A stretch of DNA of 63,816 bases, filler included, from Deltaproteobacteria bacterium (GTDB taxonomy: Bacteria; JAEEML01): the NCBI GenBank assembly GCA_016283195.1. It is 8 parts of 8 records of this genome, joined end to end, with 100 filler letters (N's around TTAATTAATTAA, not from the genome) between each part and the next. Parts side by side here need not be neighbours in the genome. Positions count along the whole stretch, not along the records: positions 37,577 to 45,271 come from JAEEML010000110.1; 7 more parts are not named here. One strand, 5' to 3'. Each line of letters starts with the position of its first letter. Within the stretch, counting starts at the first letter, position 1. Under the pieces are notes generated by a model that had not been told where the DNA came from, did not search any database, and worked only from the letters and a program-made list of their open reading frames with translations. The translations under genes and the position numbers were made by a program. Shown one piece after another: positions 4,748 through 61,089 of this stretch.

Positions 4748-5473
4748 TCACCCATTCTTTTTGGGCTTAAACTGAAAATAGAAACCGAAATGGAGCGCGA
4801 CATAGCCCTGCGGCAAAGCCGGCCAGGGGGTTAAACTGCTGCATGCTCCGCTCGTAGAATTCTGACAATTTTTCTCATGGTAATCATCCGGCATATAGGC
4901 ACTGGAAAAAGCTTCTACTAAGCCCAAATCAAGGCCGATGAAGCCTCGCTTGCTTTTGCCAACATGTAAGTCCAAAGATACTCCGGCTCTAATATCAAAG
5001 TACGCAAAGCCGACAGGCCAGAGGCCAAGAAGAAGGCCGTTAAAGCCGACACCAAGTCCGACAAATGGCGAAAAGACAAAGCGCTTATTAATTATATGAA
5101 ACTTAACAATAGCGTCGACATCCCATGATATGCCCGCGGGAAAAAGGCTATAACCTGCCCCTATACCCCCGGTTACCTGGCCGTATAGACCAAGAGCAAA
5201 GTGTTCACTTTTTTTGTTTTTAAACTTATACCCAACATTAAGACCTAACATACCGGCTTGAACCGGCACATAGCCGGCAAAAAATTCCATGCGGATGCCG
5301 TGGCCGGCAAAAGGTGTCTTACTGGTGGTGCTGAGCGTTTGATTATCCGCTACTTGCGTACTTTCATTCTCCATAGCCGCTGCGCCGCTATCATCGGCGG
5401 ATGTAGATTCTTGAGCGTAGGCCGCGGAGGAGAAAAGGACAAGAGCACTAAAGATTAACAGGAGACGCTTCAT
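4748..5473 (-). CDS. Exported, probable outer-membrane beta-barrel protein
   Basis: Signal peptide AYA|QE; alternating Gly/aromatic strands; aromatic-rich C-terminal strand. Confidence 0.6.
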   Translation of the reverse strand: MKRLLLIFSALVLFSSAAYAQESTSADDSGAAAMENESTQVADNQTLSTTSKTPFAGHGIRMEFFAGYVPVQAGMLGLNVGYKFKNKKSEHFALGLYGQVTGGIGAGYSLFPAGISWDVDAIVKFHIINKRFVFSPFVGLGVGFNGLLLGLWPVGFAYFDIRAGVSLDLHVGKSKRGFIGLDLGLVEAFSSAYMPDDYHEKNCQNSTSGACSSLTPWPALPQGYVALHFGFYFQFKPKKNG

Positions 5474-9306: not shown

Positions 9307-9406
9307 NNNNNNNNNNNNNNNNNNNNNNNNNNNNNNNNNNNNNNNNNNNNTTAATTAATTAANNNNNNNNNNNNNNNNNNNNNNNNNNNNNNNNNNNNNN
9401 NNNNNN
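9307..9406. other. Artificial contig spacer (also at 15455, 31791, 37477, 45272, 55328 and 60990)
   Basis: N44-TTAATTAATTAA-N44 six-frame stop linker. Confidence 0.98.
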
Positions 9407-15242: not shown

Positions 15243-15554
15243 ATAACCACGCCACAAAAGTCTGGTGGTATATTTGGGCTTTTGTCAGCATACCCTGTGG
15301 CATACGGAAAAAGCTCATAAAGTTTGTTAATAAATATAGGCCGAAATATTTTAACATTTTTTACAAAATATCTTTTCCTTAAAAGCCCTCTTGTGGCATT
15401 AAGGGGCAGGGCGCAATATCTCGCCCCGAAAGTGAGATTTTTTATGAAAATACCNNNNNNNNNNNNNNNNNNNNNNNNNNNNNNNNNNNNNNNNNNNNTT
15501 AATTAATTAANNNNNNNNNNNNNNNNNNNNNNNNNNNNNNNNNNNNNNNNNNNN

Positions 15555-31568: not shown

Positions 31569-31890
31569 CAAATACCTCGCTCTCCAACTGACCTTCGCTG
31601 GCAAATTCCAAGTTAGTATTAAGCTCCAAAGCCGTAGAAGCCGAGAAACTGCCCTCAGCATCCGACTTGGCATTGAGTGCCAAGCGAAAATGGCCATCAG
31701 CACTCAGGTCAGTCATCTTCATTTTTACCATATCGGCCCCAACTTTGGCAATATCGGAGGAATTAAAGTCAATAGTACCGTCGATAAGGANNNNNNNNNN
31801 NNNNNNNNNNNNNNNNNNNNNNNNNNNNNNNNNNTTAATTAATTAANNNNNNNNNNNNNNNNNNNNNNNNNNNNNNNNNNNNNNNNNNNN

Positions 31891-37476: not shown

Positions 37477-37576
37477 NNNNNNNNNNNNNNNNNNNNNNNN
37501 NNNNNNNNNNNNNNNNNNNNTTAATTAATTAANNNNNNNNNNNNNNNNNNNNNNNNNNNNNNNNNNNNNNNNNNNN

Positions 37577-38959
37577 ACTTTCATGCTTTTCCAAAACAGC
37601 TGTTATTTCCTCTTTGGATTTAAAGCTGCTTTCCATCAAAGCGGTAATATAATCACTCCCGGCTGCGTAAACAAAAAAGTTATCTTTTAATGCCCAGCCG
37701 ACTTTGGATTTCTCACCGGTGCTATACACGGTGGCTCCGCTTATTTCACTTTTTATTAAATCCTTTTCCAAGGCTTTGGAAAGCGGCGCGGAGAGCTCCT
37801 CGAGAAGAGGCGAAAAAGCATTGGTATCTTTTACGTGCGCACTCACGGCTATTTGCACTAATTCTAAAAATATCGCTTCTTTATTAACTTTACCGCCGCC
37901 TTTAAGAAGCACAGGCAAAATACGCAAAACATCGCCCAGATGCACCGAAGCTATATATGGAGCGTTAAATTGCTGCACCAATTTACCGGCATAAGGCAGC
38001 AGGGGATTGGCCTCGCTATCGCTTGCGGCATCGGCAATAAGCGCCGCCACTTTATCTTCCATAAGAGAAATATCTGCCGTAGCTAAGGCGTATAAGATTG
38101 TTTCAGCCGGCACATCCTGGGCGCCGTCGGCCAGTTTTCCGGCCGAGAGTACTCGCTGGGCCAAAGCGGCTGTCGCCTGGCCCATTTGCAATTGCCCGGA
38201 GAGGTCAAAACGGCCTTTTTCGGCAGTAAAATCAAGCAATGCTCCGGTCACAATATCATCAAGTTTTTTAGTAAAAGGCGCTTTATCATTGTTAAAGACA
38301 TAAAAAGCGCCTTTGGGTGCCACCCGCTTTTTGAGCTCATTAAATTTAGGTAAATTACTGAGCTCCCGGCCGTTGCTGTTTTTGAGAAAAGCGGCGAATT
38401 TTTGTGCCCATTCACTTTTATTAAATATATAGGCATACTTACCTTCAAAGGTGTAATAAACAGTGTGCTTATTGCTAAGTTGCTCAAAAATACGGTCCTC
38501 AATAACCTGCTGCGAAACTGTTGGCTGCTCATCAATTTGGCCAAAAACATATTTAAATTGCTCAGCAAATTTCTTTTCATCAGCCACCGGCAAAATCGCA
38601 GCCAAACCGGCAGTTTCCCCCTTTTGCGGCACATTTTGATTATAGGCAAAAAAGGCCGCCCCGGCCGAGACATCGAGGCCCATTTTTTTATAATCTCCGG
38701 CTACTGTGGGGTCAAAACCGTAGCGCACCTTAATACTCGCTTTAATGTTTTCCAAATCGGCGGCGCTATCAGGTGAAACCAAGCCGTTTATAAAATCGTT
38801 CATTGCAGCTACAGCTTTTGAAAGCTCAGGAATTATCGCCACTTGCGAGCTATCGCCGGGTACAGCCGCTTCAATCGGCTTACGCCCACTACCGCAAGTA
38901 CAACCGCCAGCGCATAAAATAGCCGAGAAAAGAAGACAAATTTTTAATTGCTTTCTCAT
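37577..38959 (-). CDS. Hypothetical lipoprotein, 3'-truncated
   Basis: Lipobox AGGC; long ORF. Confidence 0.75.
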
Positions 38960-39015
38960 TTTTATTAGTTATTCCTATAGTCAAACACTATGTTAATTAG
39001 TTATTCGTTTTTGGC

Positions 39016-40677
39016 TTAGCTGTTTTTCTTTAAAGATTCCGGCATAATATCAGCAAGTTGTCCGAGTGTTTTATTTTGGTCGGCCAAATAATCAAGCGTG
39101 CCACTGCCCTCTTTCACCGCCTTCATGGAGAGGGAGATCTTTTGCTTTTTGGTGTCAACGGAAAGAATAGCGGCATCCACTTCCTGGCCGATGGTCAAAA
39201 AGGAGCTTATATCTTCTACTCTTTCTTCAGCTAGCTCGCTCACATGGCAAAGGCCGACAAAACCTGGCTCGATTTCCAAGAAAGCGCCAAAAGATTCAAT
39301 GCTTTTCACCTTGGCCGTTACTACGGAGCCGGGTTTGTTTTTAGCGGCAAAGACCTGCCAGGGATCTTCTGTAAGCTGCTTAAGCCCCAGCGAAAGACGC
39401 TCTTTTTCAAGATCAATAGCTAAAACCACCACTTCCAGCTCATCACCGGTTTTAAAGCGCTCACCAAGTACAATATTGCGCTCTGTCCAGGAAATGTCGC
39501 TGCGGTGCAAAAGGCCGGTGAGCCCATGCGGCACATCCACAAAAAGGCCAAATTCGGCGATATCTTTAATCACGCCTTTAACATGGCTATTCACAGGATA
39601 TTCCTTAGCAAATAATTCCCACGGATTAGGATCCACATGTTTTAAACTGAGCGACAAACGATGAGCCTTTTCATCTACTTCCAAAATATAAACTTTAACT
39701 TCGTCGCCAACAGCAAGAGCATCACTTGGTTTACTAATGCGCTTATTCCAGCTAAAAGTAGAAATGTGTGCCAGCCCCTCAACGCCGGGGAAAAGCTCAA
39801 TAAAAGCGCCATATTTGGTCAGAGAGCTCACCTTGCCTTTTAAAATCGCCCCCACCTTTAATTCTGCCTGCGCGGCTGCCCATGGGTCGGCGGAAAGCTG
39901 CTTTAAGCCTAAATTAACCTTTTGATTTTCTTCATCAATTTTTAGCACTTTTACCTTGAGCTTTTGGCCCACTGCCACTATATCGGCCACATTGGCCCGG
40001 CGGTCGTAACTCATGTCATTTATGTGCAAAAGGCCGCTGAAACCGCCAATATCCAAAAAAGCGCCATACTTTGTAATACTCTCCACAACGCCTTCCACCA
40101 CATCGCCCTCTTTTAATTTACTCAGCAATGCTTTTTGTGAAAGGCCGCGCTCAGCCGCCAAAATTGGCCGCCTACTCACAACAATTTGGCCCTTCTTCTC
40201 ATCCAATTTTGTAATAATAACGGCTACTTTTTTATCAACAACCGAGAGAGGATCACTTAATGGTTTTAAATCAACCTGGCTGTTTGGCAAAAAAGCTTTG
40301 GTGCCGATATCCACAGCATAGCCGCCTTTTATTTGCGCTACCACCACACCGGAGAGCTCTTTTTTTTCTGCAAAGGCCTCCTGCAAATCGCTCCAGAGTT
40401 TAAGGCGATCGGCCATGACTTTGGAGAGCAAAACTTTTTTATTTTCAGCATCAAGCTCCTCAATATAAAAGTTGAATGATTCTCCACTTTTAGGCGCATG
40501 AACAAACTGTTTCAATGAAACTTCTGCCGGAAATCCGGCGCCAAAATCCACCACCGCGAATTCATCTTTAAGCGCCGTAACTTTGCCTTTTACGGTGGCT
40601 CCGGCATTGAGGCCGGTAATAGGTTCGCTGGTGGCTGCTTCAACTTCTTCCTGAATTACCTGATTTGTGTTTTCCAT
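39016..40677 (-). CDS. rpsA: 30S ribosomal protein S1
   Basis: Six S1 repeats (YGAF.DIGG..GLLH, LGLKQL..DPW). Confidence 0.93.
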   Translation of the reverse strand: MENTNQVIQEEVEAATSEPITGLNAGATVKGKVTALKDEFAVVDFGAGFPAEVSLKQFVHAPKSGESFNFYIEELDAENKKVLLSKVMADRLKLWSDLQEAFAEKKELSGVVVAQIKGGYAVDIGTKAFLPNSQVDLKPLSDPLSVVDKKVAVIITKLDEKKGQIVVSRRPILAAERGLSQKALLSKLKEGDVVEGVVESITKYGAFLDIGGFSGLLHINDMSYDRRANVADIVAVGQKLKVKVLKIDEENQKVNLGLKQLSADPWAAAQAELKVGAILKGKVSSLTKYGAFIELFPGVEGLAHISTFSWNKRISKPSDALAVGDEVKVYILEVDEKAHRLSLSLKHVDPNPWELFAKEYPVNSHVKGVIKDIAEFGLFVDVPHGLTGLLHRSDISWTERNIVLGERFKTGDELEVVVLAIDLEKERLSLGLKQLTEDPWQVFAAKNKPGSVVTAKVKSIESFGAFLEIEPGFVGLCHVSELAEERVEDISSFLTIGQEVDAAILSVDTKKQKISLSMKAVKEGSGTLDYLADQNKTLGQLADIMPESLKKNS

Positions 40678-40832
40678 AAAAATCCTCACAAAATAGAATA
40701 GAACCCAATCAATGTGGGCGCGCTATTATAGGGTCTTTAAAAACTGGTTTGCAAGAGTTAGTGTAATTTATAGAAAAAAAGTTCCCCGGTTTTTAATGGC
40801 GGCGCCAAAAATTTTTTTAATTTTTTCAAAAC

Positions 40833-40867
40833 ACCTATTGACATAGTAGGTAAATAGGATTTATAAG
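40833..40867 (+). promoter_or_regulatory. cysK promoter with overlapping inverted repeat (candidate Rrf2/CymR-type operator)
   Basis: TTGACA(40838)-N18-TATAAG; ACCTATT-N5-AGTAGGT inverted repeat over the -35. Confidence 0.55.
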
Positions 40868-40917
40868 AGCGCTTGCTTGCCACGGTGGCAAGCCTAAAAC
40901 GATTATGGAGAATTAAA

Positions 40918-41850
40918 ATGGCTAATATTTTTAAAGCAGTTGATGAACTTATCGGGAAAACTCCTCTTCTGGAGGTTAGCAAAATTGAGAAAAAATTGGC
41001 TCTAAAGGCACGCGTTTTGGTAAAACTCGAGGCCTTTAACCCAGCCGGCTCGGTAAAAGACCGCATCGCCATGAACATGATAAACGAAGCCGAAAAGAGC
41101 GGCAAATTGGCTCCCGGCGGCACTATTATCGAGCCCACTTCCGGCAATACCGGCATCGGTCTCGCCATGGTAGCTGCCGCACGCGGCTATCGCCTCATTA
41201 TCGTTATGCCGGAAACCATGTCCATTGAGCGCCGCCAACTGGTAAAGGCTTACGGCGCCGAAGTAGTGCTTTCCGAAGGCGCCAAAGGCATGAAGGGCGC
41301 TATTGCCAAAGCCGAAGAACTTTCCAAAGAAATCCCCGGCAGCTTCATCGCCGGCCAATTTGTCAACCCGGCCAACCCGGCTATTCACCGGGCGACAACC
41401 GGCCCGGAAATCTTTGCCGATACCGACGGGGCGGTGGATATTTTTGTGGCCGGCGTAGGCACCGGCGGCACCATCACCGGCGTGGGCGAATATTTAAAGA
41501 GCCAAAAGCCCTCTATCAAAGTGGTGGCCGTTGAGCCCAAGAGCTCGGCTGTGCTCTCCACCGGCGTGGCCGGCGCGCACAAAATCCAGGGCATCGGCGC
41601 CGGCTTTGTCCCGGATGTTTTAAACACCAAGATTTATGATGAAATTATCCCTGTGGCCAACGAAGACGCCTTTGCCACCGGCAAACTTTTGGGCAAAACC
41701 GAGGGCTTTTTGGCCGGTATCTCCTCCGGCGCCGCCCTCTGGGCTGCTATTGAGCTAGCTAAGCGCCCGGAAAATGAAGGCAAAACCATTGTGGCTCTTT
41801 TGCCCGATAGCGGCGACCGCTACTTCTCCACTCCCCTCTTTGAGGGCTAA
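40918..41850 (+). CDS. cysK: Cysteine synthase A
   Basis: NPAGSVKDR (PLP Lys), PTSGNTG, GVGTGGT, HKIQGIG. Confidence 0.96.
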   Translation: MANIFKAVDELIGKTPLLEVSKIEKKLALKARVLVKLEAFNPAGSVKDRIAMNMINEAEKSGKLAPGGTIIEPTSGNTGIGLAMVAAARGYRLIIVMPETMSIERRQLVKAYGAEVVLSEGAKGMKGAIAKAEELSKEIPGSFIAGQFVNPANPAIHRATTGPEIFADTDGAVDIFVAGVGTGGTITGVGEYLKSQKPSIKVVAVEPKSSAVLSTGVAGAHKIQGIGAGFVPDVLNTKIYDEIIPVANEDAFATGKLLGKTEGFLAGISSGAALWAAIELAKRPENEGKTIVALLPDSGDRYFSTPLFEG

Positions 41851-42001
41851 AACAACTGCGCTTTCGGGCAACAAAAATAATTACCACCCTTTAAATCAAC
41901 TTTTAAGTCGGCATACCATTTGACAAATTCCTCCCTTTGGCTATATACTACGCGCTATGCACTCAAGATGATTGCATTTTTATTAAGCTTAAAAAGGAGT
42001 C

Positions 42002-42805
42002 TTGGTTTTGGAAGAGCAAGAGCCGAAAGTTGAGAATAACTTACCGCAATTATTTAGTTTTCAATATCAATTTGTGGCCAGTGCCGCTGAAGGCGGCTTT
42101 ATTGCCGAAGATCGCTATAGCCAAGGCCGCAAAGTCCATATCTGGCCTATAGAGTTCACCGCCAAGCCGGATCTCCTGGCCATGATTGATTTTCAAAGCG
42201 CCATATATGATTTTAGAGCTCAACAGCGTAAAGACGAGCCGGCACTTTTAGAAGTAAAAGAAGATAGCTTCAAAAGCCCGCCAATAATATATATTATTGA
42301 AGAATTTAAGGAAGATAGCCACCGCTTAGCCGAAAAACCTTTTTATAAGCTATTAACTAAACATTTGGGCCGCTGGCTAAGAGAAGCTGAGGAATCGGAG
42401 CAGAAAATAGCGTCTTTTGAGGTAGTTAACTCCGATTCGCCTGCTCCTATGGAGCCCCGCCAAGAAGCACCGGAGCCGATGGAAGCAGAGCCGCTAAAAG
42501 CCGCAGTGCCACAGCAACTGCCGGAGCCGCCGCTCTCCGCTCAGCCACCGGAGCCGGCCCAGAATTTTTCAGTGCCGCCAACAGAGCTTTCTTATGATGA
42601 GGAGCTGGAATTACCACCTTATTCTGAAAATAGCGCTGACGATGACCCTTTAATCGACAGCTTTAAACCGCCGCTGATAGTACGCCTGGTAGAAACCGTG
42701 CATGATATGGATGAACAGGGAAAAACGGCACTACCTCTCCTCATTTTCCCAGGAATCATTGTATTAATCTTTTTTGTAATGCTCTATGCCCATATATACG
42801 GCTAG
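42002..42805 (+). CDS. Hypothetical protein with Pro/Glu-rich linker and C-terminal TM
   Basis: AAGGAG SD with TTG start; C-terminal hydrophobic helix. Confidence 0.7.
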   Translation: MVLEEQEPKVENNLPQLFSFQYQFVASAAEGGFIAEDRYSQGRKVHIWPIEFTAKPDLLAMIDFQSAIYDFRAQQRKDEPALLEVKEDSFKSPPIIYIIEEFKEDSHRLAEKPFYKLLTKHLGRWLREAEESEQKIASFEVVNSDSPAPMEPRQEAPEPMEAEPLKAAVPQQLPEPPLSAQPPEPAQNFSVPPTELSYDEELELPPYSENSADDDPLIDSFKPPLIVRLVETVHDMDEQGKTALPLLIFPGIIVLIFFVMLYAHIYG

Positions 42806-44014
42806 TTATGGTTTACGCAAAAAAGCATAATATTCATGTCTTAGCGGGCGATAGCCGTTTTCTTTCATCGCTGCGTAGCGGTAGTTATAGGCCGCTTTTT
42901 TGTGGCTGCCGGTGGCAATATAGCGCATAGATTCCTGCATATAGCTATCTATCTTATGCAAACTGTCTGTCGTATTTATCACCGGAAAATACCAGCGGCA
43001 CCAGGTGAGCTCATTTTTTGTGGGGTTATCATAAAATTTGCGCTTAAAGTAGCGGATAAAAACGCGCACCGCCTGGTCACCCGTCGCCCCCTTTTTGCGC
43101 CGCCAGCGATAGATAGCGCGGGCCTTGCGCCGCACTTTGGCTTTTATTTTCTGCAAAGCAACCGCCGAAATATCAATAGTGCCGTTATGATAAAAAAAGC
43201 CTAAAAATTCCCAGCCTTCACCGGGGGCGCTGTGTTTTATTTTGCGCGGATTCAGCGTTAAGCCGCGCTCAGCCAAAAAGCTTTTTATAAATTCAAAATG
43301 GCCGTTAAGCTCCTCCGCCGTCGGCGCAAAAAGAATAATATCATCAGCATAACGGGCATAAGGTATTTTAAGCGCCCAAAAGTGTTCGTCCAGAGCCGCA
43401 AGATACAAATCGGCCAAAAAAGGCGAAAGCGGGCTACCGGCGATTATGCCCTTCTGCATGGCTTCCGGCCCACTCTGGGTTATTGCGTAAGGGTCGCGCA
43501 AAATAGCGGCCATAAAGTCATAAAGGCGATCCTCACCTTTAAGCACCTCTTGCAACATAGGCAAAAGCAAAGCAACATCCACAGAATTAAAATAATCGTG
43601 AATATCCAGCTTTAGGGCATACATGGCTCTTATGCGCGGCCGCTTTACCAAATAGCGCAGGGCATCTTTGGCGCTCTTGCCGCTGATAAAAGAATAGAGA
43701 TTTTTGGCAAAGAGGCTGTCGTAGCGGTGGAGCGCATGGCCGAAAAAGCGCAAGAGCTCATTTTCGGCCTGGGGAAAAGCAAAAACCGCCCGTTTGCGGT
43801 CGGTGCCCTTTTTGTTTAAAAGGATCCGCTCAGGGTGCGGGAAAGGCAGCCCGGCCGCTAAATTTTCCAAAATAGGCAGATACTGTTTTTCATCAATAAA
43901 CTTGCGCAGATAGCGTTCTTCGCGCTTAGTAAGATGGCCGCTATCCAGCACCTTATTGTAATATTCTTCCCAAGCTGCCGGGCTCCATGCCTGCTCATAT
44001 ATATCTTTTGGCAA
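42806..44014 (-). CDS. Stand-alone reverse transcriptase (group II-like)
   Basis: K....KR, YSF..G, KLDIHDYFNSV, GIIAGSPLSPFLA.LYL, YARYADD, GL.LN..K, EFLGF; GGAG SD before TTG. Confidence 0.92.
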   Translation of the reverse strand: MPKDIYEQAWSPAAWEEYYNKVLDSGHLTKREERYLRKFIDEKQYLPILENLAAGLPFPHPERILLNKKGTDRKRAVFAFPQAENELLRFFGHALHRYDSLFAKNLYSFISGKSAKDALRYLVKRPRIRAMYALKLDIHDYFNSVDVALLLPMLQEVLKGEDRLYDFMAAILRDPYAITQSGPEAMQKGIIAGSPLSPFLADLYLAALDEHFWALKIPYARYADDIILFAPTAEELNGHFEFIKSFLAERGLTLNPRKIKHSAPGEGWEFLGFFYHNGTIDISAVALQKIKAKVRRKARAIYRWRRKKGATGDQAVRVFIRYFKRKFYDNPTKNELTWCRWYFPVINTTDSLHKIDSYMQESMRYIATGSHKKAAYNYRYAAMKENGYRPLRHEYYAFLRKP

Positions 44015-44042
44015 TTCTCTTGCTCCAAATCACGCTTGCCCC

Positions 44043-44076
44043 AAAAAAACAAAAGCCCATGAAGTCATGGGCCTTT
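44043..44076 (-). terminator. Intrinsic terminator between the structured RNA and the RT gene
   Basis: AAAGGCCCATG-ACTT-CATGGGCTTTT hairpin followed by GTTTTTTT. Confidence 0.75.
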
Positions 44077-44079
44077 GCC

Positions 44080-44222
44080 AAAGCAGCGGAAATATTTAAA
44101 AGTTTTCCGAAATTCGGAAACCTGTACCGGGTGATACCAAATAGGCCACATGCACGGCCCGCCTTGTCGGCGCTTAGGTATTTAGCTGCACCCTCTGCAT
44201 GTGCATAAGCCTCCGCCGCTTT
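44080..44222 (-). ncRNA. Putative RT-associated structured ncRNA
   Basis: 11-bp closing stem AAAGCGGCGGA/TCCGCTGCTTT, internal 8-bp and 7-bp stems, and possible pseudoknot pairings; lies immediately 5' of the RT. Confidence 0.65.
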
Positions 44223-44224
44223 TA

Positions 44225-44707
44225 TCAAAGAAGAGCGTTTTTGATGCGGTCAGTTACAAAGCTCTCTTTATTTTCGTAAACATAATACATAGTTACATAT
44301 TTTACATTATGTTTTCTACAAACAATCGGAGCCTTTTTAGAAGCCTTATCCTTGGCAATAGCAATAGCCAAAACCGGCTGCCCGTCTTTTACGAGGAGAA
44401 AATCAAGGGGTTTAAAAAACTTGCTCGCTTCCGCATCAATCTCAGTCATGGGCACATTTTCGCGGAGGGTGTATTCAGCAAAATTGCGGGCAATAATTTC
44501 TTTAAAATAGGCATGATTGCGATGAAAATCCTTAGTGTAATCAATGCCGTTTATCATAACGCGCCCGTTTTCTATGGTAGCTTTGGGGAGAGATGGAGCC
44601 GGTTTATTGGCGGGAGCGCCAGCAGAAGAAGAGCCACCTTTTTTGCCTTTTGTAGCCGTGTAAATCACAAAAATAACAATCGCCGCAATTATAATTACTT
44701 TTACCAT
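44225..44707 (-). CDS. Membrane-anchored DUF2726-like protein
   Basis: N-terminal TM, Pro/Ser linker, NVPMTEI...PLDFLLVKDGQPVLAIAI...CRKHNVKYV pattern. Confidence 0.6.
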   Translation of the reverse strand: MVKVIIIAAIVIFVIYTATKGKKGGSSSAGAPANKPAPSLPKATIENGRVMINGIDYTKDFHRNHAYFKEIIARNFAEYTLRENVPMTEIDAEASKFFKPLDFLLVKDGQPVLAIAIAKDKASKKAPIVCRKHNVKYVTMYYVYENKESFVTDRIKNALL

Positions 44708-44748
44708 TTTCTGCCTCGGCAGCCAGTTTAGAAAAGCCGCAACTGAGT

Positions 44749-44777
44749 ATGATAAATGACACCGAAGTTATTGTCAA
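44749..44777 (-). promoter_or_regulatory. Sigma70 promoter for the DUF2726-like/ncRNA/RT cassette
   Basis: TTGACA-N17-TATCAT on the minus strand. Confidence 0.7.
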
Positions 44778-44896
44778 TCAACCATTTTGCCCACCCAAAA
44801 GTCTATACTAAGTAAGTGGGGGGCTGGCAGTAGCTTTCCCCTACGCCCTCGGCGGTGCTACAATCCATAACGCAGCTCACATCTCCCGCACCTTGC

Positions 44897-45034
44897 TCAG
44901 GGTAAACTCCGCTTCTTCCTCATTTGAGCCATATTTTTTCTAGCGGCCTGTGCGCTCTCATCAAAACCGCAAATCGACTTTAGATACTCATCGCGCCAGG
45001 ATTCCTTATATTCGATTAACTGGCTCTCTGGCAT
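44897..45034 (-). pseudogene. Truncated Schlafen/AlbA_2-domain gene remnant
   Basis: MPESQLIEYKESWRDEYLKSICGF then diverges and stops at 45 aa; GAGGAG SD. Confidence 0.75.
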
Positions 45035-45371
45035 TGTGCACTCCTCTCTTTTCCGCTACTGGCGGGAAAAGCCCACAACTTGTATTATCCGGCGGCGGCG
45101 CTTTTGGCTAGCTAAAAAGCCGGATGGGGGGCAGGAATTATGGAGGGATAGAACTGGCAGACGGTAGGCTGGCATTACCAAGACAACTATTGGATTTTAT
45201 TGGTATCTAACACTCCATGGTTTCGCCTTCATCTCTCTTTGCCCCTCACATTTCTCGCAACTTGCACTCTANNNNNNNNNNNNNNNNNNNNNNNNNNNNN
45301 NNNNNNNNNNNNNNNTTAATTAATTAANNNNNNNNNNNNNNNNNNNNNNNNNNNNNNNNNNNNNNNNNNNN

Positions 45372-46457
45372 AGAGGCAAAATTTCTGGGATTCATCATAA
45401 CATCGCCGCTCCTCGCTTTACAGCGGACCCATTTGCCGTTTTCGCCGCATTTTTGCATACCGGCTCGGCAATAAGCTGAGCCCTTGTCATCATATTTGCG
45501 GGTGGCGCGTCTTTCGCGTTCGGCTATTTGCATTGTACCGCCATTATTGGCTATGTAATTTTCACGGTAAATAAGCTGGCTTTGATCTTGGCTTACTACG
45601 TTATTCCAGCAAAAGCGCTCTTCGCCGTTTTGACAATCGCAACCGTCGTCAACGGAACCATTACAATCATCGTCTATGCCGTTATTGCAAATCTCTTCTT
45701 CATTGCGCTCAACATAACCGCGGCACTCGTTTTCCCATTCTTGATTTTCATTGCATCTTTGGAAGCCTAAAATACATTTGCCAATGCCGGCTTGGGCTTC
45801 ATGCTCTTTGGGATAGCATGGGCGGTAGGAACCGGTGGTGCATTTACAGCCTTCGTCAATGACATCATTACAGTTTTCATCAATGCTGGGTGAATTTTCT
45901 TTGGTACATATTTCTTTGACGAAAGGATTTATTGCATAGTTTTGCTCATTGCAGTCATTAAGCGCATAATCGGCAGATTCTTTAGCCATACCAACAGAAA
46001 AGCAGTCTTCATCGCCATCGGGATAATCGTCGATGCTGCGAATTGTGATGGTCACTTCGGTGGTGAGGCCGGGGATGAAATTGGCGATGGCTACGCCTTG
46101 CATGAGCACATCTTGTTTGCCCATATAGCCGCGGGCGCAAATAGCTACTTTGCCGGCCATTTCTTTACTGGGTGCTAGTTCAAGCAATATCGGGTCGTTT
46201 GACAAATCGCGGCCATAGACATCCAGAGTAGGGCGCATATTGTCGTTTGTTTTTTCAAAAAAAACAGCTTTTTTGAAACTTTCTGAACTATCGTCCATGC
46301 GGCGAACACCCAGGCGTAGCTGCATCATGTTATCCGGCGGCGGAGTCTCGGCTTTTATTTTTAAGGTGATGGTTGTTGGCGGTTCTTTGGATTTACAGGA
46401 AGTGAGAGAAAAGCTAAGAGCAAGTAAGAGAGCAAAAACAGCAGAATAATGTCTCAT
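45372..46457 (-). CDS. Cys-rich lipoprotein with putative metal-binding (MopE-related) repeats, 3'-truncated
   Basis: Lipobox LTSC; DCNE....INP...EIC...IDENCN..IDEG and EICNNGIDDDCNG.VDDG. Confidence 0.8.
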
Positions 46458-46653
46458 GCGAAAACTCCCGCCAACCGGCGGCACACAGCCAAGCCGGTGA
46501 GTAATACGGAACAAGAGGGGCAACAACTGCACCGACCGCCTATTATAAATGGATAAAAGTCGTTTGTCGAGATACTTTAGCACTCTTGAAAGCAGATGGC
46601 TAAATGAATTAAATAACCCGGTGGATGGTTGAACCAACCGAAAGGAGTTTATA

Positions 46654-47982
46654 GTGAGAAGAATCAAAAAAGCAGTTTTAGTCGGTACTCTCGGTTTATT
46701 CTTCTGCGGCGGCGCTTATGGCTGCGGCGGCAAGGTGGCATCGGCCCAGGGCGGCGAGGTGGCGGCCGGTCCCAGGGAGGCAGGTGGTAAGGCCTATTAT
46801 GGCAAAGGAAAAGGCGGCAGGGGGCAAGCGCTAAAAGCGGTGGCGCTGGAAAAGGCCACTTTAGTGGAAAGTGTGCCGCTGGAAACTGAGGCGGTTTTAG
46901 ATCATCAAAATATTGATAATGCCGCGGAATTATGGCCAAAATTAGTGAAAAGTGCAGAAAAGAGCATCGATTGGGCTATGTTTTATGCCTCCGAGAAAAA
47001 GGGAGCGGCATTGACCCCGGTGGTGGAAGGGCTGTTGGCAGCGGCCGCCAAAGGGGTAAAGGTGCGCATAGTGGCCGATGCCTCTTTTTATAAAACTTAC
47101 CCGGAAACCCTGAATAGATTTGCCGCGGCCGGGGTGGAGGTGCACAAATGGGATGTAAAGAGTGCCACTAAAGGGGTGATGCATGCCAAGTATTTCATTG
47201 TTGATGGCAAAATAGCTTATATCGGTAGTCAGAATTTTGATTATCGTTCGCTGGAGCATGTCTATGAAACCGGCATCTTGCTGGAAAACGAGGAAATTGC
47301 CGCGCGGCTCACCGGCCTTTTTGAGCAGGATATTCGCGTAGCCGAAGATCCGAAACTGGAGCTCCCCAAAGTGCGCTGTCCCAAAGCAGAGTGGCTGGAA
47401 GAGGTGCCGCTGCAAGTTGAACTAACCTCAACACCAACTCGCTGGCAGACGGAAGAGACTCTCTGCGAGCGCCAGGAAATAGTAAATCTTATCGGCAAAG
47501 CCAAAGACGCCATAAGAATACAAGTGCTGCATTATTCGCCGGTTAGCCGTACCGGCAGGGATTATTTCGGCGATTTTGATGAGGTGTTGCGGCGGGCGGC
47601 GGCACGCGGAGTAAAAGTAGAACTTTTGGTTTCGGATTGGGGAGTGCGGGCGCCGGCTATCGAATGGCTCAAGAGTTTGAGCTTAATACCCGGTATTACA
47701 GTGAAAATTATTTCCATTCCAGCACATTCCGGCGGTTTTATCGACCACGCCAGGGTGGCCCACTCCAAATATATGACGATTGATAATCGTTGGTCTTGGG
47801 TGGGTTCAAGCAACTGGGAGAAAAATTATTTTACCGCTTCGCGCAATGTGGGAGTTATTGTGCGCGGAGTGCGTTTTACTCAGCAATTATCCGGAATGTT
47901 TGATAAAATTTGGAACAGTGAATATACTGAAGAACTAGATGTTACTAAGAATTATATCCCGCCGCGCACCACTGCCGAATAA
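46654..47982 (+). CDS. Phospholipase D superfamily lipoprotein (two HKD motifs)
   Basis: HAKYFIVD...GSQN and HSKYMTID...GSSN. Confidence 0.9.
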   Translation: MRRIKKAVLVGTLGLFFCGGAYGCGGKVASAQGGEVAAGPREAGGKAYYGKGKGGRGQALKAVALEKATLVESVPLETEAVLDHQNIDNAAELWPKLVKSAEKSIDWAMFYASEKKGAALTPVVEGLLAAAAKGVKVRIVADASFYKTYPETLNRFAAAGVEVHKWDVKSATKGVMHAKYFIVDGKIAYIGSQNFDYRSLEHVYETGILLENEEIAARLTGLFEQDIRVAEDPKLELPKVRCPKAEWLEEVPLQVELTSTPTRWQTEETLCERQEIVNLIGKAKDAIRIQVLHYSPVSRTGRDYFGDFDEVLRRAAARGVKVELLVSDWGVRAPAIEWLKSLSLIPGITVKIISIPAHSGGFIDHARVAHSKYMTIDNRWSWVGSSNWEKNYFTASRNVGVIVRGVRFTQQLSGMFDKIWNSEYTEELDVTKNYIPPRTTAE

Positions 47983-47987
47983 ATGAT

Positions 47988-49841
47988 TTAGTGTTCTATC
48001 GGCAGATAGAACATGACATAGTTACCATCAGAGCTATTTAACTGAGTGGTGCCACCTAAAGAGCTGTTTTTACCGCGCTCGCCGATTTCATAGATATAAA
48101 TAGGGTGTTTGTAAACGGTGTTATCAGCTTCGCCGTTGGTTAAGGGATCAGGGGCGTTATTAGCGCCGGCGGTGGTGAGTGAGAAGGCGTAACTGCCGGC
48201 AGTGCCTTCAAAGTCGGAGGCGGCATCAATGCTGGCGTTGGCCGCTACGGCGGTTACGCGGGTTTTATGGACATTTTGCGAAACAGCGGCTTTGTCGATG
48301 ATTTTGCCGGAAGGATCTTTTATCAGAACTACATCATCGATATCGTTACTTTCCCAAGTGCCTAATTTTTCATCAAAAATACGCCAATATAGACTTACTT
48401 TTTCTAAGGCGCCTGATTTTAAAACCGGGTTAAACAGCTGTGACCACTCGCTCATGGTATCGGCCGCTCTGGCAAAGACAATATAGTTGCCGGCGGTGAA
48501 ATTGCTCTGGAAAGTATAGGTGATTTTTTTGTAAGAACTCTTGCCCACATTTTGGTGCAATTCCACCACATAACCCTTGATATTAGCTGCAGTTTCCTTT
48601 TTGTAACCCTCGCCGCAGATGGTGAAGTAAAAATTGGCTTCGTCGGCATCGTCGTTGGGAATGGAAACTTTGGTGCAAGCGCGGCCTATTTCCGTTGGCG
48701 TGAAAATAAGCTTGGCTACCAAACTCTCATTGGGAGAAATATTGGGCTCTGAAGGCTGAGCGGCAATGGCAAAGCAAGAAGAATCGCCCTCTAATGAGAT
48801 GGAATCAGTTAAATGTAAATTAGCAGTGCCAACGTTTTTAATGAGAATATCTATATTCATGGGCTCATTTAAGGGAGCGGAACCAATGAGAATATTTTGG
48901 GAGGTATTTACCACATTGGAATTATTAACGCTGACGCTGATCTCCGGCCTATCGACATAAGAACCCTCGAAGCTGGTGCCTACCAGGGAGATGGAATAGG
49001 TGGAATTGTTGGGATCATCGCTCTCGATGGTGATGTTGGCAACGTGGGTGCCGATGGTGACGGGGGCATAGCGCAGTAGAAAAGTTGTGCTCCCGCCGGC
49101 GGCGACTTCAGCGGCAGCATCACTTATAATAGCAAAATTTTTAGTGTCACTTAAGTTAATAACCGAGTCGTCCTCTTTGTTTAGTGTAAGTTTTGAGCTG
49201 CCGCGGTTGAAAATGGTAAATTTCAGGTCAATGTGCTTTTTGGTTTCTGTTTTGCCGATATCGACATTTATGGTGCCGTTTGGCATATCGCGGCCTTTGG
49301 TATCGGTGATGGTGTCCGAAGTGATGCTGTCCAGATGAAGATCTATCTTGGGCTCATGAGTTACAGCTTTAGCAGATAATTTAATGATGAATTCTTTGGC
49401 ATTTTTGGCATCGGAATAGATTTTAACATCGCAATTGAAAGTGCCGGCGCTTTCCGGATTATAGAGTATGGTGAACTGATTAGCAGAGGAAGGTTGCAGT
49501 GATTTGGGCAATTCCTGGGTTATTTTATAGCCGAGGCAGCTAATAAAAACTGTAGGATTTTGGGTAAAACGTATCACCGCATCGCTGTTGTTATAAGCCG
49601 AAAAGATTAATTCAATCGGTTGCCCGAGCGGGTGCTCTCCCAGATAGAGGCTTTGACCGTTGGTAATAGTATTATTACCGAAGGTGATGGAGAGACCGCT
49701 GGGAATTGTTTGCGGAGTTTGGGAACCAGACCCCGGTTCATTAGTTTCTTCGCCTCCACAAGCGCCGGCGCCTAGAACCAAGGTGATGAGCAAGGCGGAA
49801 AGCAAGGTTTTATGGCCTATTATTGATTTAAAATGTTTCAT
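47988..49841 (-). CDS. Lipoprotein with three Ig-like (choice-of-anchor D/ASH-type) domains
   Basis: Lipobox AGAC; repeated F.I.N.G...L and I.SDD motifs. Confidence 0.75.
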   Translation of the reverse strand: MKHFKSIIGHKTLLSALLITLVLGAGACGGEETNEPGSGSQTPQTIPSGLSITFGNNTITNGQSLYLGEHPLGQPIELIFSAYNNSDAVIRFTQNPTVFISCLGYKITQELPKSLQPSSANQFTILYNPESAGTFNCDVKIYSDAKNAKEFIIKLSAKAVTHEPKIDLHLDSITSDTITDTKGRDMPNGTINVDIGKTETKKHIDLKFTIFNRGSSKLTLNKEDDSVINLSDTKNFAIISDAAAEVAAGGSTTFLLRYAPVTIGTHVANITIESDDPNNSTYSISLVGTSFEGSYVDRPEISVSVNNSNVVNTSQNILIGSAPLNEPMNIDILIKNVGTANLHLTDSISLEGDSSCFAIAAQPSEPNISPNESLVAKLIFTPTEIGRACTKVSIPNDDADEANFYFTICGEGYKKETAANIKGYVVELHQNVGKSSYKKITYTFQSNFTAGNYIVFARAADTMSEWSQLFNPVLKSGALEKVSLYWRIFDEKLGTWESNDIDDVVLIKDPSGKIIDKAAVSQNVHKTRVTAVAANASIDAASDFEGTAGSYAFSLTTAGANNAPDPLTNGEADNTVYKHPIYIYEIGERGKNSSLGGTTQLNSSDGNYVMFYLPIEH

Positions 49842-55327: not shown

Positions 55328-55427
55328 NNNNNNNNNNNNNNNNNNNNNNNNNNNNNNNNNNNNNNNNNNNNTTAATTAATTAANNNNNNNNNNNNNNNNN
55401 NNNNNNNNNNNNNNNNNNNNNNNNNNN

Positions 55428-60988: not shown

Positions 60989-61089
60989 ANNNNNNNNNNN
61001 NNNNNNNNNNNNNNNNNNNNNNNNNNNNNNNNNTTAATTAATTAANNNNNNNNNNNNNNNNNNNNNNNNNNNNNNNNNNNNNNNNNNNN

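Follow-up and report, generated by a model that had tools for sequence, protein, structure and literature searches.

The minus-strand element at positions 44080-44222 is a genuine, pseudoknotted non-coding RNA (ncRNA), a member of the RT-5 family that adjoins the gene of a UG26-class reverse transcriptase (RT), and a retron is very unlikely. RNA family and RT group had both been catalogued already; RT-5 is the near-constant RNA partner of UG26. The window, i.e. the whole stretch of DNA that was analysed, comprises 63,816 nucleotides of the Deltaproteobacteria bacterium assembly GCA_016283195.1 in eight joined parts, and coordinates refer to it unless given for another locus. The contig that carries the element (37577-45271; 7695 nt) corresponds to metagenome record L161 with 100% identity. 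The spacers between contigs (9307-9406, 15455-15554, 31791-31890, 37477-37576, 45272-45371, 55328-55427 and 60990-61089) each consist of 44 N, TTAATTAATTAA and a further 44 N. A sequence-only reading of the locus had postulated a distinct structured RNA that serves the adjacent RT, is closed by a terminal stem and contains a pseudoknot, and it was right on all three points.

An RT-5 RNA beside a UG26 reverse transcriptase gene

Scanning positions 40000-48000 against Rfam yielded a single match above a gathering score. This was RF03026 (RT-5 RNA) at 44206-44088 on the minus strand (49.8 bits versus a gathering score of 45.7; E 1.4e-7), and the match spans the full model (positions 1-104 of 104). 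The pseudoknotted RNA proposed upstream of the RT, for which an Rfam search had been suggested, was thereby placed in a known family. Our own covariance model R1 matched the window at 44074-44227 with 60.4 bits. Together with a conserved block shared with the related locus L162, these matches define the element as 44080-44222, from the 5' arm to the 3' arm of closing stem P1. The 143-nt element folds with -55 kcal/mol (z = -4.0), a value equalled or surpassed by none of 200 shuffled sequences, and inclusion of the flanks gave a z of -4.8.

The RT gene (42806-44014, minus strand) begins 66 nt downstream of the RNA on the same strand, and adjacency to an RT gene is likewise shared with Rfam RT-5. 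It encodes a protein of 402 aa with a YADD active site. PADLOC model RT_UG26 matched it at E 9.7e-151 over profile positions 5-395 of 398, with the next model at E 2.2e-31, and Pfam RVT_1 matched at E 2.2e-23. The next-best DRT-class models of PADLOC were UG17, which is called DRT10 in preprints (E 2.7e-26), UG4, UG27 and Drt9 (E 1.5e-21). Retron models reached E 1e-13 to 1e-14 in PADLOC, and NCBIfam models, including those for retrons and Drt2, all remained far below their cut-offs (retron_St85: 53.3 bits versus 235). When compared by sequence with solved structures, the protein retrieved distant RTs only, with 8bgj as the best entry (E 2.7e-19) and the DRT9 entry 9ioa at E 8e-7. By these profile matches the window RT is classified as UG26, a Class 2 UG/Abi enzyme. 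Residues Y222, D224 and D225 were invariant in 80 of 80 RT sequences. Near the C terminus, Y380 was invariant, while Y395 and Y396 occurred in 57 and 68 of the 80, respectively.

Homologous loci were collected by a scan of one genome per species, which returned 151 RT relatives. Eighty loci (38-49% identity) were retained, from rumen and gut assemblies of Lachnospiraceae, Bacteroidales and Erysipelotrichaceae. In 20 of 20 loci chosen for diversity, Rfam RT-5 was located directly upstream of the RT gene. Alignment with the flanks included exposed two elements past the limits of the Rfam model, the closing stem P1 and the small hairpin P2, and model R1 was built from 21 sequences with a nested structure drawn by hand. 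With R1, RT-5 was detected beside the RT gene in 76 of the 80 genome loci and in 71 of 79 further metagenome loci. Distant viral RTs (22-26% identity) gave no match at E <= 1 across 80 loci totalling 654 kb, and the viral collection contained no UG26 relative above 26% identity. One of the four genome loci that lack the RNA, L045, is cut. In the other three (L023, L027 and L034) no RNA was found; with filters switched off, no RT-5 match was better than E 0.03 (15 bits). These three encode UG26-like RTs (45-46% identity) that have neither an RT-5 RNA nor a Vsr-fold partner within 3 kb. The RT of L023 is about 431 aa long, and a 313-aa open reading frame (ORF) overlaps its end instead.

Locus L162 is a close relative, with an RT that is 90% identical to the window RT over the 189 residues compared. 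The flanks of the two loci have diverged, and the segment from the 5' arm to the 3' arm of P1 is nearly identical. This pattern of conservation points to a functional unit that extends from one arm of the closing stem to the other. A 77-aa ORF overlaps the RNA. It was dismissed as a conserved protein, the finding of which would, according to the sequence-only reading, have spoken against the RNA, because the frames of homologues differ and three 1-nt indels relative to L162 shift the frame.

The closing stem P1 pairs 44212-44222 (5' arm) with 44080-44090. It comprises 11 bp including one G-U, exactly as foreseen from the sequence, can be extended by two more G-U pairs, and begins 2 nt past the stop codon of the upstream gene (TGA at 44227-44225), again as foreseen. 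In the family, changes on both sides occurred at 12 of 13 P1 pairs, 89% of the cells were paired, and the median was 12 of 13 pairs. The 5' arm consists of at least 90% purines in 61 of 76 rows and the 3' arm of at least 90% pyrimidines in 69 of 76, a strand type that the window P1 lacks. In the family alignment A3 (columns 4-16 and 288-300) a purine 5' strand and a pyrimidine 3' strand, followed by a U run, are found nearly always; a role of this arrangement in triplex formation or termination is conceivable. A G residue 1-2 nt after the 5' arm is kept in 74 of 76 rows, where it forms the first pair of helix P2.

Inside P1, the 5' strand of P3, GGGUG (44189-44193), pairs with CACCC at 44129-44133, with changes on both sides at 5 of 5 pairs and 96.4% of cells paired. 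This helix had already been recognized in the window. The sequence-only reading had continued it by pairing AUACC with GGUAU, a pairing displaced by the conserved helix P4 (44179-44186 with 44136-44143) that is present in the Rfam alignment and has changes on both sides at 7 of 9 pairs. Invariant CAGC and GUA letters flank the base of P4. P5 (44144-44159) is a GGCC hairpin with an 8-nt loop (GGCC, loop, GGCC; changes on both sides at 4 of 4 pairs), and its loop provides the 3' strand of the pseudoknot. The 5' strand of the pseudoknot, ACAUGCA (44196-44202), pairs with 44148-44154. The complementary segments CACAUGCA (44203-44196) and UGCAUGUG (44154-44147) had been noticed before, and the crossing pairing of CACAUGCA with UGCAUGU was borne out by the homologues: the pseudoknot columns, which model R1 did not contain, showed 99.3% and 95.8% pairing, and double-sided changes affected 4 of the 7 pairs. 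The proposed extension of this stem by AGGC and GCCU had to be abandoned, GCCU (44146-44143) being mostly part of the P5 3' strand GGCC (44147-44144). One crossing helix is real, as had been predicted, and which of the helices bears the name pseudoknot is a matter of naming.

The variable loop between P4 and P5 accommodates an additional, lineage-specific hairpin (44160-44172). The CGCC-GACAA-GGCG hairpin described earlier is indeed present there, at 44172-44160, and also in L162, and relative to the Rfam consensus it is an insertion of 11 nt. Toward the 3' end follows P6 (44104-44120), a hairpin that had likewise been noticed in the window; it has 5 pairs in the family model, all 5 changed on both sides, and 7 pairs in the window, and it is a candidate anchor for the 5' limit of the putative template window.

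Across an alignment of 77 rows, standard pairs were found in 92.7% of cells versus 74.8% with shuffled and 45-48% with slid partners, double-sided changes were present in 39 of 47 pairs, and every helix was supported; these counts lean towards the nested structure because the alignment was fitted to it. On a plain MAFFT alignment, RNAalifold predicted 26 pairs, 20 of them with double changes. Compensatory changes, the evidence the sequence-only reading had proposed to look for, were thus found in the outer stem, in five inner helices and in the pseudoknot. The most conserved letters of RT-5 are situated in the pseudoknotted core and not in a loop.

When compared with Rfam RT-5 (RF03026; Weinberg et al. 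2017, PMC5737381, in the part of the description available), the window copy has the nested helices in common and shares the conserved letters (CAGC, GUA twice and a UGCAGG-type loop). It is the weakest copy seen (49.8 bits versus 50-98 in 20 other loci), carries the additional hairpin, and differs in its closing stem, whose strands are not divided into purine and pyrimidine. The 104-position Rfam model leaves P1 and P2 out or reaches them only at its margin, and the Rfam alignment obtained with cmscan displays nested pairs alone. The window copy is a divergent new member of RT-5.

Partner gene and locus architecture

The module is arranged in the window in the order partner, RNA, RT. The partner gene (44225-44707, minus strand) encodes a protein of 160 aa with a hydrophobic N terminus, a low-complexity linker and a C-terminal fold resembling Vsr/DUF559-like restriction endonucleases. 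Most homologues start with MGLF or MGLL. The PADLOC model RTasCOG2852 matched the window protein weakly (E 5.9e-5) and 27 of 32 aligned homologues. No PDB match and no Pfam family were found by sequence, no match to SLATT was present in PADLOC or Pfam, and Foldseek returned no hit at E <= 0.001, its weak hits being mostly proteins with a restriction-endonuclease fold. The C-terminal domain was modelled with AlphaFold2 (pLDDT 83), and residues 61-160 were compared with known structures using VIA-align, which gave the DUF559-like protein 3hrl (Z 9.3; rmsd 2.7 over 86 residues), I-Bth0305I (Z 8.8) and Vsr 1cw0 (Z 8.0). In alignment A4 of 32 homologues R154 is the sole invariant residue, and the acidic catalytic residues are not conserved. 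The partner is therefore described here, on the strength of the predicted model, as a Vsr-fold protein without conserved catalytic residues.

With a partner profile, the gene was detected in 67 of the 80 loci, and in each case it immediately precedes the RNA on the same strand. The partner is not obligatory, since six loci with enough flanking sequence contain the RNA in its absence. The three RNA-less loci are also devoid of the partner. In L025 and L029 the gene order is RT, partner, RNA, terminator, and hence the RNA goes with the partner and is not simply a leader of the RT gene. The RNAs of these permuted modules were located at 5262-5413 (L025) and 4993-5225 (L029) of the respective loci; in L029 the P5 region is swapped for a long insertion, and the RNA match extends over 233 nt. 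In locus L015, 3.2 tandem copies of a 32-nt unit (2840-2942) separate the RT-5 RNA from the start of the RT gene, and a shorter version is found in the related L017.

About 40 nt before the partner gene, a consensus scan identified a promoter-like site (44749-44777, minus strand; TTGACA, 17 nt, TATCAT) with 11 of 12 matching positions. It is a pattern match only, of a kind that occurs twice in the region versus 4.0 times expected from shuffles. Between the RNA and the RT gene, a hairpin with a 14-pair stem followed by a T run resembles an intrinsic terminator (44040-44079, minus strand), and comparison with L162 shows two compensatory changes by which its stem stays paired. Its place between RNA and RT gene in the window is a further point against an RT leader. 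As a trait of the family, a canonical terminator downstream of the RNA was rejected, since it was present in just 5 of 77 rows, one of them inside the RT gene.

Two further ORFs were noted in the neighbourhood. The one at 44906-45034 (minus strand; 43 aa, MPESQLIEYKE...), upstream of the promoter-like site, resembles the stump of a longer gene and had no Pfam match. The other (42002-42805, plus strand; 267 aa) is convergent on the RT gene, with abutting stop codons, and matched no Pfam, PADLOC or NCBIfam model.

A candidate template window and competing readings

Our favoured reading, to which we assign a probability of roughly 60% by analogy with the Class 2 DRT scheme, is that RT-5 is the dedicated, trans-acting ncRNA of a three-part UG26 module, acts as both scaffold and short template, and is copied at J6/1. 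This stretch of the RNA (44091-44101, minus strand) is an 11-nt single strand, UUUUAAAUAUU, with the family pattern N-UU-Y-AA-R-NNNN. The approximately 143-nt RNA, closed by P1, consists of a pseudoknotted core (P3, P4, P5 and the pseudoknot) followed by P6, J6/1 and the 3' arm of P1, such that J6/1 is a short unpaired link bounded by two helices, P6 and P1. Its length is 11 nt in nearly all rows and 12 or 13 nt in a few. The UU and AA vary hardly or not at all, and the 5' half is conserved while the 3' half is variable.

In the related systems DRT9 and DRT10, Class 2 enzymes are reported to use as template a short single-stranded stretch held between two anchored stem-loops. The RNAs are about 140-150 nt long, the copied strand is near the 3' end, synthesis is reset by A-B-A' microhomology, and priming occurs at a C-terminal serine or tyrosine (10.1101/2025.10.16.682844; 10.64898/2026.04.29.721553; 10.64898/2026.06.29.735271; PMC12483538; each as far as its available text goes). 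The template occupies about positions 110-119 of 137 nt in DRT10 (10.1101/2025.10.16.682844) and U123-126 of about 150 nt in DRT9 (PMC12483538), and on these published positions its relative place equals that of J6/1 in RT-5. The predicted layout of anchors plus single strand matches DRT2, DRT3 (DRT3a), DRT9 and DRT10. Because RT-5 shares the layout of DRT9 and DRT10, J6/1 (44101-44091) was taken as the most likely template.

The following course of events would be compatible with this assignment. Partner and RNA would be co-transcribed from the promoter-like site (44777-44749), and the transcript would end at the terminator (44079-44040), so that mRNA of the RT gene would arise by read-through only. 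The RT would bind the conserved RNA core and be anchored at the bases of P6 and P1, the helices that frame J6/1. It would then copy J6/1 repeatedly into repetitive DNA, probably with a protein as primer, and readout of this DNA would fall to the Vsr-fold partner, which is taken to be membrane-anchored and catalytically dead. A role of the UG26 module in phage defence is plausible.

Several observations count against details of this course. A-B-A' microhomology of at least 3 nt was present in 35 of 49 distinct sequences versus 34.9 expected with shuffled partners, and of at least 4 nt in 7 of 49 versus 7.6. In a simpler count with a weak control of its own, a UUY recurs at a distance of 8-11 nt in 35 of 48 distinct sequences; by the test above, this is no excess over shuffled partners. 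In L001 and L004, the loci nearest to the window in RNA shape, the microhomology is 1 nt only. Resetting at J6/1 would moreover require a downstream copy that sits within the paired arm of P1, and of the tail tyrosines, as candidate primers, Y395 and Y396 are only partly conserved, though Y380 is invariant.

The lack of a convincing A-B-A' signal is in line with an unlikely alternative, namely that RT-5 is a scaffold or activator that assembles or licenses the RT and is itself not copied, with DNA synthesis being untemplated or protein-templated. There are precedents: according to the available text of PMC13213688, DRT4 makes random single-stranded DNA in the absence of a template, and Drt3b works without a nucleic-acid template. 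That the most conserved letters belong to the pseudoknotted core and not to a loop would also suit a scaffold. PADLOC profile scores, however, group UG26 with UG17, UG27 and Drt9, and in the papers cited here, within their available text, ncRNA-bearing Class 2 enzymes all copy their RNA. The constant length and the position of J6/1 also fit a template window.

A cis-regulatory leader or attenuator, in which P1 and the U run govern read-through into the RT gene and perhaps autoregulation by the RT, was considered improbable. In most loci the RT start codon follows 4-30 nt past the 3' arm of P1 and the U run, and in the window the RNA is followed by a terminator, as expected for an attenuator. 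In L025 and L029, however, the RNA comes after both genes and before the terminator, and six helices plus a pseudoknot are far more elaborate and conserved than attenuation requires.

Very little credence is given to an msr/msd-like RNA of a retron in which P1 would represent the a1/a2 stem, the conserved G would prime via its 2'-OH, and the segment from J6/1 to P6 would be copied into branched msDNA. The terminal stem does unite the 5' and 3' ends of the RNA in the manner of a1/a2 inverted repeats (P1, 11 bp, covarying), the G past its 5' arm is conserved as described, the RNA precedes the RT gene in most loci, and many RT-associated motifs have been speculated to belong to retrons in the available text of Weinberg et al. 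(2017; PMC5737381). The likeness to a1/a2 arms that the sequence-only reading had pointed out therefore holds for the closing stem; it does not extend to the RT, which belongs to the UG26 clade (RT_UG26 E 1e-150 versus 1e-13 to 1e-14 for retron models; NCBIfam retron_St85 53 bits versus a cut-off of 235), nor to the gene order, which is permuted in L025 and L029. The conserved G is paired, as first pair of P2. The 3' hairpin, envisaged as a retron-type template, was not upheld as such: P6 was modelled with only 5 pairs (7 in the window), and a long msd-like hairpin is missing. The retron reading fails because the class of the RT is wrong and the long template hairpin is absent.

A DRT2-like mechanism, in which the entire loop enclosed by P1 would be copied by rolling circle to yield a concatemer with an endless ORF, is the least credible reading and was rejected: the enclosed part measures 100-134 nt in 76 of 77 rows, near the approximately 120-nt DRT2 template (PMC12483538, available text), and P1 joins the two ends of the loop, but a consistently stop-free frame is absent (in 5 of 77 sequences every frame of both strands is closed, and no sequence is open in all three frames of one strand), and the length is not a multiple of three (35, 22 and 20 sequences in the three classes modulo 3).

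Copying at J6/1, the favoured reading, predicts RT-dependent DNA complementary to 44091-44101, and the module of partner, RNA and RT comprises about 2 kb. In a more speculative form, which we regard as possible and put forward tentatively, RT-5 would have a core like that of telomerase RNA (closing helix, pseudoknot and a short template that a hairpin delimits), and the UG26 RT would write the UUYAAR... repeats of J6/1 as tandem-repeat or A/T-rich DNA, in a protein-primed reaction, to be sensed by the membrane-anchored, dead Vsr-fold protein. If this were true, the repeat-writing Class 2 systems would gain a third kind, which would also be the first to possess a pseudoknot in the style of telomerase. 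Should the J6/1 prediction prove correct, a pseudoknot-bearing addition to the bacterial relatives of telomerase would be gained; should it prove false, UG26 and RT-5 would still constitute a clean, widespread RT-RNA module of rumen and gut.

Relation to known RT-RNA systems

No published link between RT-5 and UG26, and no test of either, was found in the article texts surveyed, and relevant items on UG26 were limited to Mestre et al. (2022) and a cold-seep virome paper. The RNA family was introduced by Weinberg et al. (2017; PMC5737381), who, in the available text, described motifs RT-1 to RT-19 near RT genes as possible parts of retrons or diversity-generating retroelements (DGRs). UG26 was placed in Class 2 by Mestre et al. 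(2022; PMC9226505), whose available text reports that 9 of 35 members have a COG2852 partner, regards an association with defence as inconclusive and describes no UG26 RNA. The window module shares with that group, as far as described there, the end-to-end RT_UG26 match and the RTasCOG2852/Vsr-like partner. Compared with the 9 of 35 members, 67 of the 80 loci analysed here have the partner and 76 have the RNA.

Adjacency to an RT gene and a closing pairing from end to end are shared with retron msr/msd RNAs; the clade of the RT differs, a long msd hairpin is absent, and gene order is permuted in some loci. DRT9 (UG28; PMC12483538, in its available text) has in common with the UG26 module a Class 2 RT with a structured ncRNA, tyrosines in the protein tail and, within the final quarter of the RNA, a conserved single strand with U residues. 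In contrast to DRT9, J6/1 contains 2-4 U followed by AAR and no U tract, the tail tyrosines are partly conserved, and sequence similarity is low (E 1.5e-21 with the Drt9 model; E 8e-7 with PDB 9ioa).

DRT10 differs from the UG26 module in the RT group (E 1e-150 for UG26 versus 2.7e-26 for UG17) and in its partner, which is a SLATT protein and not of Vsr fold. RT-5 is located between partner and RT, whereas the RNA of DRT10 is upstream of both; RT-5 is pseudoknotted, and its A-B-A' microhomology is no commoner than with shuffled partners. Within the available text of the DRT10 preprints (10.1101/2025.10.16.682844; 10.64898/2026.04.29.721553; 10.64898/2026.06.29.735271), the two systems share a three-part module with a membrane-associated partner and an RNA of about 140 nt that has a basal closing stem and a short single strand between its last hairpin and that stem.
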